Positions 2,920 through 4,502 of a DNA stretch of 7,327 bases are shown piece after piece. The stretch lies in assembly GCF_006345805.1 (NCBI RefSeq), contig NW_021828902.1:1-7327 (forward strand), given 5' to 3'. Numbering within the stretch: the first letter of the stretch is position 1; every line of letters begins with the position of its first letter. Under the pieces are notes generated by a model. The model did not search any database. It saw nothing but the letters and a program-made list of their open reading frames with translations, and was not told where the DNA came from. The position numbers were made by a program, and so were the translations under genes. Source of the stretch: Octopus sinensis. Its lineage: Eukaryota.

Positions 2920-3143
2920 GGCGAGGAACTGGAAGAATCGTTAGCATGCTGGGGAAAATGCTTAGCTGCATTTCGTACGTTTTTAGGTTCTGGCTTAAAA
3001 TTCTTTTCCGAGGATAGCTTTGACTTTCATCCGTTCGGAGGCGATGAAATAAGTAGCAGGTATTCATTGGGGTCGATATAATCGACTTAGCCCGTCCCCA
3101 CCCCAAAACTGCTAGCCTTGTGCCAAAATTTGAAATTAATATT
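2920..3143 (+). mobile_element. tRNA-derived SINE, full length, diverged, tail type A (copy 1)
   Basis: Head GGCGAGGAACTGGAAGAATCGTTAGCATGCTGGG-AAATGCTTAGC, core CTTTCATCCGTTCGG-GTCGATATAATCGAC, tail GCCTTGTGCCAAAATTTGAAATTAATATT. Aligns by eye with the reverse complement of the copies at 3588-4482. Resemblance to octopus SINEs is from memory. Confidence 0.88.
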
Positions 3144-3155
3144 CAAATTATTCTT

Positions 3156-3377
3156 AGCTAGCAGAATTGTTAGTACGCTGGGAAAATTCCTTAACCACGT
3201 ATCGTTCGTCTTTACGCACTGACTTCAAATTCCATTGCGCGGTCGGCTTTGACTTTCGTCCGTTCGGCGTCGATAAAATAAGTACCAGTTGATTACTGGG
3301 GTCGATGTAATCAACTACCCCACCACGATCCCACCCACAAATTTGTTAACATTGTTCCAAACCTTGAAACCGATATT
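3156..3377 (+). mobile_element. tRNA-derived SINE, near full length, tail type A (copy 2, head-to-tail with copy 1)
   Basis: AGCTAGCAGAATTGTTAGTACGCTGGG head, B-box-like GACTTCAAATTCC, core GTCGATAAAATAAGTACCAGT-ACTGGGGTCGATGTAATCAAC, degenerate tail TTGTTCCAAACCTTGAAACCGATATT. Confidence 0.87.
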
Positions 3378-3382
3378 AAAAT

Positions 3383-3586
3383 AATTTCTTGTAAATTTGG
3401 AATAAGCGCAACAATTTTGAAATGGGGGAGAAGATCGATTATTTCGTCCGGTGTATTACTGGTATTTTGTTTTATCAACTTTTGAAAAGATAAAATGCAA
3501 AGTCAATCTCGGAAGGAGTTGAACAGAGACCGTGAAAAACTGTCGTAAGCATTTTGTCCGACGTTCTAATAATTCTGCTAACTTCC
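3383..3586 (-). mobile_element. tRNA-derived SINE, strongly diverged (copy 3, tail-to-tail with copy 2)
   Basis: Plus-strand ACTGGTATTTTGTTTTATCAAC, GCAAAGTCAATCTCGG, TAAGCATTTTGTCCGACG and TTCTGCTAACT match the minus-strand copies downstream; ends approximate. Confidence 0.8.
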
Positions 3587-3587
3587 A

Positions 3588-3945
3588 AATTATTTCAATT
3601 TTTTGCTATAAGGGCAGCTTGGAGAGATGGGGATGAGTCGATTACATCGATCCCAGTGTTCAACTAGTGCTTATTTTATTGACCCCGAAAAAGATGAAAG
3701 GCAAAGTTGACATCGGCGGAATTTGAACTCAGAACGTAGCGGCAGACGATATACCTATTTCTTTACTACCCACAAGGGGCTAAACACTGAGAGGACAAAC
3801 AAGGACAGACAAATGGATTAAGTCGATTATATCGACTCCAGTGCGTAACTGGTACTTAATTTATCGACCCCGAAAGGATGAAAGGCAGACGATATACCGC
3901 TAAGCATTTCGTCAAGCGTGCTAAATATTCTGCCAGCTCGTCGCC
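3588..3945 (-). mobile_element. Host SINE (tail type A) interrupted by a nested insert (copy 4)
   Basis: Head at 3945-3899 (sense GGCGACGAGCTGGCAGAATATTTAGCACG). Body resumes at 3755-3588 with B-box-like GAGTTCAAATTCC (3730-3718). Removing 3756-3898 restores a contiguous full-length element. Confidence 0.9.
3756..3883 (-). mobile_element. Nested head-less SINE module, tail type C (128 bp), flanked by a 15-bp direct repeat
   Basis: Core plus tail (sense TTTGTCTGTCCTTGTTTGTCCTCTCAGTGTTTAGCCCCTTGTGGGTAGTAAAGAAATA) lying between identical GGCAGACGATATACC at 3741-3755 and 3884-3898. Confidence 0.85.
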
Positions 3946-3961
3946 TTAATATCAATAATAT

Positions 3962-4079
3962 CCCGAAAGGATGAAAATCAAAATCAAACTCCACGGAATT
4001 TGAACTCAGAACGTAAAGTCGGACGAACAACCGCTAAGCAATTTGCACGCCGCGCTAACGATTCTTCCACCTCGTCACC
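3962..4079 (-). mobile_element. SINE 5' half, 3'-truncated (copy 5)
   Basis: Sense head GGTGACGAGGTGGAAGAATCGTTAGCGCGG, B-box-like motif at 4007-3995; stops just after CCTTTCGGG with no tail. Confidence 0.87.
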
Positions 4080-4251
4080 TTAATATTATTTTCTACTCTA
4101 GGCACAAGGCCCGAAATTGTGGGGGAGAGGCCAGTCGATTAGATCAACCCCAGTGCGCTGCTGGTACTTAAGTTATCGACCCCGAAAGGAAGAAAGGCAA
4201 AGTCGACCTCGGCGGAATTTGAACTCAGAACATAAAGACAGACGAAATACC

Positions 4252-4356
4252 TATTTCTTTATTACCCACAAGGGGCTAAACACAGAGGGGACAAACAAGG
4301 ACAGACATAGGTATTAAGTCGATTACATTGACCCCAGTACGTAACTGGTACTTAAT
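4252..4356 (-). mobile_element. Nested tail-C module (105 bp) between two identical 79-bp repeats
   Basis: Same tail as 3756-3820 with few differences; 4173-4251 is identical to 4357-4435. Confidence 0.82.
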
Positions 4357-4397
4357 TTATCGACCCCGAAAGGAAGAAAGGCAAAGTCGACCTCGGC

Positions 4398-4473
4398 GGA
4401 ATTTGAACTCAGAACATAAAGACAGACGAAATACCGCTGAGCATTTCGCCCGGTGTGCTAACGTTTCTGCCAG
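4398..4473 (-). promoter_or_regulatory. Internal RNA polymerase III (type 2) promoter-like A and B boxes of the SINE head
   Basis: Sense TGGCAGAAACG about 10 nt from the 5' end resembles the tRNA A box. GAGTTCAAATTCC resembles the B box (imperfect) and is identical in four places. Activity not shown. Confidence 0.65.
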
Positions 4474-4502
4474 CTCGCTCCCTTGTTACCTTGATATTAA
4501 CA

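Follow-up and report, generated by a model that had tools for sequence, protein, structure and literature searches.

A tail-C SINE of Octopus sinensis is probably both the passenger and the landing site of a Tx1-like LINE

Target-specific LINEs are thought to shelter in repeats supplied by the host or by another transposon. The nearest precedent for the elements described here is the crocodilian pair SINEU and Tx1-Mar, presented in the passages cited as a group of Tx1 LINEs and a SINE with a common target in a Mariner DNA transposon (Kojima 2015, PMC4494074). The octopus elements resemble this pair in having a target within a repeat common to LINE and SINE, two preferred regions used by different LINE families, and tandem insertions. 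In both, the preference of the SINE is at most as strict as that of the LINE (13-90% in crocodilians, PMC4494074). In contrast, the SINEU heads are derived from U1/U2 and the partnership runs through the common target (PMC4494074), whereas in the octopus the tail is also common, and the octopus target is not Mariner-N4 but the passenger SINE and its sister families, entered at one base. What is new, as far as the sources cited extend, is that the target is the passenger SINE itself. Full-text literature searches returned no LINE targeting its own partner SINE; an entry in Repbase, Dfam or SINEBase, which lay outside their scope, is possible.

Other APE-type LINEs of the L1 group that insert sequence-specifically into multicopy repeats include Tx1L in Tx1D (Xenopus), Keno, Kibi and Koshi (PMC4494074). 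As given there, they enter a DNA transposon, U2 genes or microsatellites, and in no case does the LINE itself multiply its target, as the octopus LINE probably does. R2 and its SIDEs, R1Bm and SART1 are comparable, in the sections cited, in their uniform 5' joints, explained by pairing of the cDNA with target sequence that the RNA carries, in internally deleted passengers, and in accurate priming helped by downstream target bases (PMC3774820, PMC7265360). In those accounts, however, the protein sets the site, with no switching between near-identical copies. R2 further has a restriction-like endonuclease and an rDNA target (PMC3774820), whereas the octopus partner LINE has two ORFs and an APE domain, which rule it out as an R2-type (RLE) element. 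Head-to-tail arrays of part of a SINE are also described for squamate SINE-derived satellites and bivalve tandem SINEs, where unequal recombination or repeated insertion is given as the cause and no site-specific partner LINE is named in the text cited (PMC10702118, PMC11481361). By description, a putative tRNA-like head, a central block and interchangeable tails are shared with the octopus SINEs OK, OR1 and OR2 and with CORE and Meta SINEs (PMC4824008, PMC4758252, in the parts cited); three motifs of the SINE were absent from two supplement files of PMC4824008. The main text of a report on 13 recently active L1-Tx1 families in an octopus contains neither 'target' nor 'nested' (PMC13282606).

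The window, that is, the whole stretch of O. sinensis DNA analysed (7,327 nucleotides of contig NW_021828902.1), carries on its minus strand two composites, each consisting of one SINE head, a tail-C unit and a restart at base 48. Base numbers throughout refer to a natural 231-nt SINE copy. The sequence-only reading had placed tail-C junctions at the same nucleotide of two host SINEs, and both were recovered at those positions: the tail end AAAGAAATA lies at 4260-4252 and 3764-3756, followed by SINE base 48 at 4251 and 3755, so that the junctions are 4252/4251 (composite 2) and 3756/3755 (composite 1). The downstream units end in tail B in composite 2 (motif 4112-4093) and in a decayed tail A in composite 1 (3620-3592). 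The features, in the order in which the minus strand is read, are as follows.

4483 to 4499, minus strand: likely duplication of 17 bp enclosing composite 2 in full, with 14 of 17 bases identical to 4088-4072 (by eye)
4436 to 4482, minus strand: composite 2, SINE head, bases 1-47, with A-box-like TGGCAGAAACG at about 4472-4462 (matched by eye against the consensus)
4252 to 4435, minus strand: composite 2, upstream unit, bases 48-231, ending in tail C
4089 to 4251, minus strand: composite 2, host remainder from base 48 onward, with B box at 4224-4214 and tail B
3962 to 4079, minus strand: older SINE from the same superfamily, truncated at the 3' end; its site 48 (4032) is decayed and unoccupied
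3899 to 3945, minus strand: composite 1, host head, bases 1-47, with T19 typical of tail-A hosts
3884 to 3898, minus strand: composite 1, 5' copy of the 15-bp target duplication (3' copy at 3755-3741), both copies with A53
3756 to 3887, minus strand: composite 1, 5'-truncated tail-C insert, bases about 100-231
3592 to 3755, minus strand: composite 1, host remainder from base 48 onward, with B box at 3728-3718 and decayed tail A

Composite 1 has the classic form of a target-primed insertion, with a 15-bp duplication, a rare variant in both copies (A at base 53, present in only 3 of 359 aligned units), a truncated insert and a 4-nt microhomology at its 5' joint. In composite 2, the upstream unit is host-derived over at least bases 48-108, because it shares T67 and T108 with the host and the rare base-108 variant occurs in 2 of 363 units, both in this composite; its remainder is of tail-C type. 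The 17-bp duplication likely arose when the tail-B host landed directly before an older SINE head. Three further old SINEs of the same superfamily were observed at 2920-3316 (plus strand) and 3435-3578 (minus strand), and nine SINE units in both orientations lie within 1.6 kb, flanked by long microsatellites.

Across genome assembly G000, the 25-nt end of tail C occurs exactly 88,011 times (control 0), with GGTAT next in 39,763 cases. Tail C closes a complete SINE of about 231 nt, since most free copies have their own head (56 of 74 begin at base 15 or earlier) and a 7-23-bp duplication whose first base adjoins the tail (a script detected it in 46 of 80). The first 100 exact tail-C ends on contig C1 comprised 63 with free flanks, 33 at base 48, 3 at base 15 and 1 before a head; under a softer alignment the same ends gave 60, 35, 4 and 1. 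The earlier statement that tail C never occurs with its own head or a free flank is thus true inside the window only and false genome-wide, and the idea of a dedicated headless module aimed only at related SINEs gives way to that of a complete SINE with about 60 of 100 unselected ends in non-SINE flanks. Frequent free genomic flanks, which the sequence-only reading had named as counting against its proposal, are thus observed for most ends; 33-35 of 100 lie at base 48. Strict site specificity is a property of the LINE described below, and the SINE shows a relaxed version of it.

The element displays the hallmarks of a SINE: it is dispersed and short, with variable target duplications and 5' truncations. 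Box-like motifs lie at bases about 11-21 (A) and 75-85 (B), by eye against the consensus, and the 3' tail is common to a LINE over an alignment of about 40-60 nt. Within the window, ARAGORN and Rfam returned no tRNA, only microsatellite noise, and Rfam gave no U1/U2 snRNA match. A hairpin in the tail was set aside as evidence; it folds in 4 of 4 tails tried, yet no better than in shuffled sequences (z -0.6 to 1.0).

Base 48 sits between the A and B boxes, and the proposal of a fixed target in this interval is supported by 24,351 exact tail plus base-48 junctions in G000 (reversed-pattern control 0), counted with a slightly shorter tail prefix plus bases 48-58. Two other C/GATA-like sites in the same SINE (the slash marks the boundary) gave 30 and 14 junctions. 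Furthermore, a sample of 200 kb drawn from 20 unselected places contained 350 GGTAT words, of which the SINE site supplied 20, yet this site takes 33-35 of 100 unselected tail ends. It is very unlikely that a loose endonuclease motif (C/DRTAW) is the only rule and that the SINE is struck merely through its abundance. Such a motif is seen in the free targets, which are non-random (C at -1 in 20 of 46, p=5e-5; T at +3 in 38; A at +4 in 37), and bases 48 and 15 both fit it. However, the two other fitting sites receive about 800- to 1,700-fold fewer junctions, and the LINE stands at base 48 in 53 of 53 copies although this site makes up 6% of GGTAT words, which rules out the motif as the sole rule for the LINE. 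The loose motif may describe the free-flank SINE copies. In about a third of these, the duplication opens with TATA, often in TA microsatellites; a partner LINE targeting TA was not found among the elements met in this analysis.

The downstream unit of 164 junctions read ended in tail C in 119, tail B in 28 and tail A in 7, and was unclear in 10; most hosts thus belong to the tail-C family itself. This sample is pattern-enriched, as composites beyond the first 100 were picked by exact match and intact hosts are favoured. Non-CpG divergence was measured against a column-wise yardstick in 26 headed composites whose hosts had tail B, tail A or an unclear tail. The insert body diverged by 0.038, the host body by 0.082 and the head by 0.083; free monomers gave 0.037 and 0.049 on the same yardstick. 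The insert was younger than its host in 13 C-B pairs (p=0.0005) and in 57 C-C pairs (p=0.003), and host variants were hardly common to different loci (at most 4). Since the inserts are younger than their hosts and the hosts belong to several families, these data fit most base-48 junctions being separate insertions into resident copies, as had been suggested for the two composites in the window.

An improbable alternative is that a SINE dimer or multimer arose on one or a few occasions and was then amplified as a unit through its last tail. Duplications do flank whole composites, although an earlier insertion of the host itself would be just as likely to leave them. Composites headed by a copy with C at base 48 (C48) carry G at the downstream base 48 in 16 of 16 cases, and the six C-A composites combine heads that look young (0.029) with old tail-A bodies. 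Against a single fixed dimer, the second outcome that the sequence-only reading had named as contrary to its proposal, stand the three or more host tail types, the unequal ages of the units, the scarcity of host variants common across loci and the 5'-truncated inserts inside full hosts, such as composite 1; moreover, unit amplification leaves a LINE at the same base unexplained. No usable correlation was obtained in per-locus divergence between the head and the insert or host body. Hosts were also searched for a second head; 4 of 93 were flagged, and in none of these did a host head directly precede an insert head.

Tandem duplication at the DNA level, by slippage or unequal exchange as in SINE-derived satellites, is most doubtful as the origin of the arrays. 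Two or more private variants were common to neighbours at 26 of 60 inner junctions and 17 of 93 first junctions (random pairs, 3%), and the rare junctions near base 120 also make arrays of their own, with a period of about 100-110 bp (G000:C29:6445458-6447467, C30:10342227-10342453 and C1543:12873-13124). However, at 48 of 93 first junctions the neighbours have no private variant in common, and duplication is unable to create junctions between a tail-C unit and a host with tail A or B (35 of 164 junctions) or to fix a boundary at one base. DNA-level duplication likely lengthens arrays and does not start them. Separate insertion thus remains the main source of junctions; head replacement or occasional movement of whole composites, plus local duplication, also contribute, as indicated by the young C-A heads, the 16 of 16 downstream G and the variants common to neighbours.

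The sequence-only reading had also predicted a partner LINE, not seen in the window, that would end in the same tail and enter the same site, and such an element was found. It was first met at locus L018, where the 3' end of a LINE, its tail resembling tail C, is joined to base 48. This LINE (LINE-48) is 5,364 bp long, with a CCHC ORF1 and an ORF2 of APE-RT-zinc type that is open in a natural copy. ORF2 of the copy at L204 contains Exo_endo_phos (PF03372), RVT_1 (PF00078) and zf-RVT (PF13966) domains, so that its endonuclease is typed as APE; zf-CCHC (PF00098) in ORF1 scored above cut-off, and a short C-terminal piece had no Pfam match. The closest solved relatives of ORF2 are L1 ORF2p and the L1 endonuclease. 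A CCHC zinc knuckle in ORF1 is a feature of the Tx1 clade, and homologue, cluster and atlas look-ups returned no named Tx1 element. Architecture and behaviour support a provisional classification as Tx1-like. At about residue 143 of the L204 ORF2, an endonuclease motif reads GDSN in LINE-48, GDFN in L1 and GDFT in the sister LINE family described below (family 2).

Insertion of this LINE is strictly specific. The best 30 DNA matches (40 scored among 351 candidates), obtained with a query ending short of the junction, all join base 48. The exact LINE tail pattern has 139 matches in G000, with T(G/C)GTAT next in 129; the first 30 comprise 29 LINE ends, 29 of 29 at base 48, and one free SINE. All 53 distinct LINE copies read stand at base 48. 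The family is young, its copies lying a median of 0.8% apart while their hosts lie about 4% from the yardstick. Each of the 21 full-length copies read is preceded by a SINE head and carries bases 48-63 again, as a 16-nt repeat, at its 5' side, with base 48 identical on both sides of the LINE in 21 of 21. The LINE-SINE joint is also spanned, with more than 31 letters on each side, by contigs of two further runs (organisms A and B), and nearly so by a third, so the joint is not peculiar to this assembly.

The SINE is likely carried by a LINE of this kind, because the 3' end and the commonest insertion site are common to both. The young LINE ends in AAATT with the tail variant CAAT, whereas SINE junctions end in AAATA, mostly with TAGT, and CAAT is the SINE tail variant least often at base 48 (2 of 18). 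Because of this mismatch, the mobiliser of most SINE junctions was probably an older relative, which was not found in the analysis.

We consider it probable, with good confidence, that the tail-C SINE borrows the endonuclease and reverse transcriptase of the Tx1-like LINE to enter resident SINE copies at base 48. ORF2p would bind the common tail and nick the bottom strand between bases 47 and 48. Reverse transcription would begin exactly at the tail end, probably aided by a few read-through bases pairing with the primer, and a cut of the top strand about 15 bp downstream would leave an overhang able to pair with the matching part of the SINE cDNA. The nick, the start point and the second cut are deduced from the duplications. 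The insert would thereby join in register, giving one head followed by 184-bp units with no second head; pairing further along would copy more of the host, as in composite 2, or replace its head. With the site regenerated, arrays could grow by re-insertion and local duplication, and the free-flank SINE copies would likely stem from sister LINEs whose targets are looser or different. Several observations count against the base-48 model: about 60% of SINE ends lie off-site, part of the junction count reflects local duplication, the tail of the young LINE does not match that of most SINE junctions, and LINE and SINE differ in their use of C48 hosts, which hold 32 of 53 LINE copies but only 244 SINE junctions against 24,351. 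The young heads of the C-A composites also fit whole composites moving as units.

For a LINE that targets base 48, its own passenger SINE would be a self-renewing landing site. The shelter would then be the SINE that the LINE likely copies, so that target supply and passenger load are coupled, and each base-48 insertion splits the A and B boxes of a SINE. It would also explain in concrete terms how a dispersed SINE can give rise to short arrays by the tens of thousands.

Another sequence pattern (125 matches) led to the sister LINE, family 2, with protein identity to LINE-48 of about 65% in the endonuclease and 78% in the RT. Family 2 and a 1.75-kb ORF1-only derivative are both joined at AGAAAC, that is, SINE base 15 in the A-box region. 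The derivative forms head-to-tail arrays inside SINE base 15, with the target sequence starting every unit (L255-L273, e.g. G000:C2:193350638-193362800 and C3:86302742-86308027). Among the 30 best 3' matches of family 2, 5 are at base 15, 17 in an unrelated dispersed repeat, 3 in a third sequence and 5 elsewhere. The 17 lie at one site of the dispersed repeat or at the element's own copy of that repeat, and 3 are tandem; the base-15 type has 4 hosts. The dispersed repeat spans several hundred bp (L344-L351, L315-L337), and its one site, entered by most family-2 copies, is empty in L319 and L328. Endonuclease DNA is 97-100% identical across the target groups (92% in one copy), and every element has its own target at its start. 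The 5' ends of L353, L354 and L357 seem to carry one, two and three stacked blocks of 15-17 nt, respectively, which resemble the targets of other copies and look like a record of former insertion sites. Such near-identical young copies with open frames at unrelated fixed sites provide a natural test of how new target specificities arise in APE-type LINEs.

These features bear on a tentative reading, possible though not the one we expect to hold, in which the LINE drives insertion and RNA sets the target: the flank of the transcript (3' read-through and 14-17 nt at the 5' side) would pair with the DNA, and the site would be inherited within each lineage. Near-identical family 2 endonucleases at unrelated fixed sites, each element starting with its own target, are in line with it. 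So is the behaviour of LINE-48 haplotype groups 2 and 3, which occur in C48 hosts in 9 of 9 cases against 5 of 12 for group 1; no endonuclease residue separates groups 1 and 2 at informative columns. Bases 55 and 61 of the 5' repeat often travel with the LINE lineage rather than with the host, and SINE tail variants are tied to the first flank bases (TAAT with G in 13 of 17, CAAT in 0 of 16; p=5e-6). Additionally, SINE junctions are almost absent from C48 hosts (244 versus 24,351) although C48 accounts for 19 of 53 monomers and 32 of 53 LINE-48 copies. Pairing as a helper has precedents in the R2 5' heteroduplex (PMC3774820) and in R1Bm and SART1 (PMC7265360), in the parts cited.

On the other side, the endonuclease mainly sets the target in general, according to the passages cited (PMC4494074). 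The two main family 2 groups differ at 4 endonuclease residues, two of which (117 and 198) belong to loops that lie close to the DNA; the hairpin loop with residue 198 has a known role in selectivity and affects nicking in L1 (PMC1950540, as cited in part). However, one copy at the second family 2 target carries the loop residue of the first group, and copies elsewhere share the residues of the second group. The C enriched at -1 of free targets is a base with which the RNA would be unable to pair, and the haplotype links may be founder effects in small samples, with 15 linked columns tested. Host and LINE distances (hosts over 310 nt; host 0.019, LINE 0.010) gave a Mantel p of 0.34 with 13 loci and low power.

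A bolder version, which we think rather unlikely on the present sequence comparisons, would make these LINEs RNA-programmed: a weak endonuclease would be steered by 14-17 nt of target sequence on the element's own transcript, and the G48C variant of the SINE would represent escape and then re-targeting. The insertion site would then be a heritable, switchable trait, with one lineage locked on the SINE that it mobilises, in a loop in which the passenger builds the landing sites of its driver. If the flank decides, these elements would amount to a compact system for RNA-addressed insertion that could be of interest in genome writing.

The C48 subfamily is almost never entered by SINE copies and is preferred by the youngest LINE-48 lineages, a pattern for which escape followed by re-targeting is possible. 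C48 and G48 monomers show no difference in age (0.029 versus 0.035, p=0.35). Overwriting of base 48 by the RNA was not supported, as LINE hosts with a C junction carry the C48-linked marker pattern (G71 in 1 of 32 versus 6 of 21).

Further elements with related tails and other junctions were observed at L201, upstream of a LINE-48 copy, and at about 650-700 on the minus strand of L094, which suggests more families in this LINE group. Upstream of the array at L013 lies a fragment that we take to recall the end of an R4/Dong-type LINE, and the flanks of L020 presumably hold a different SINE, entered at GGTAA.
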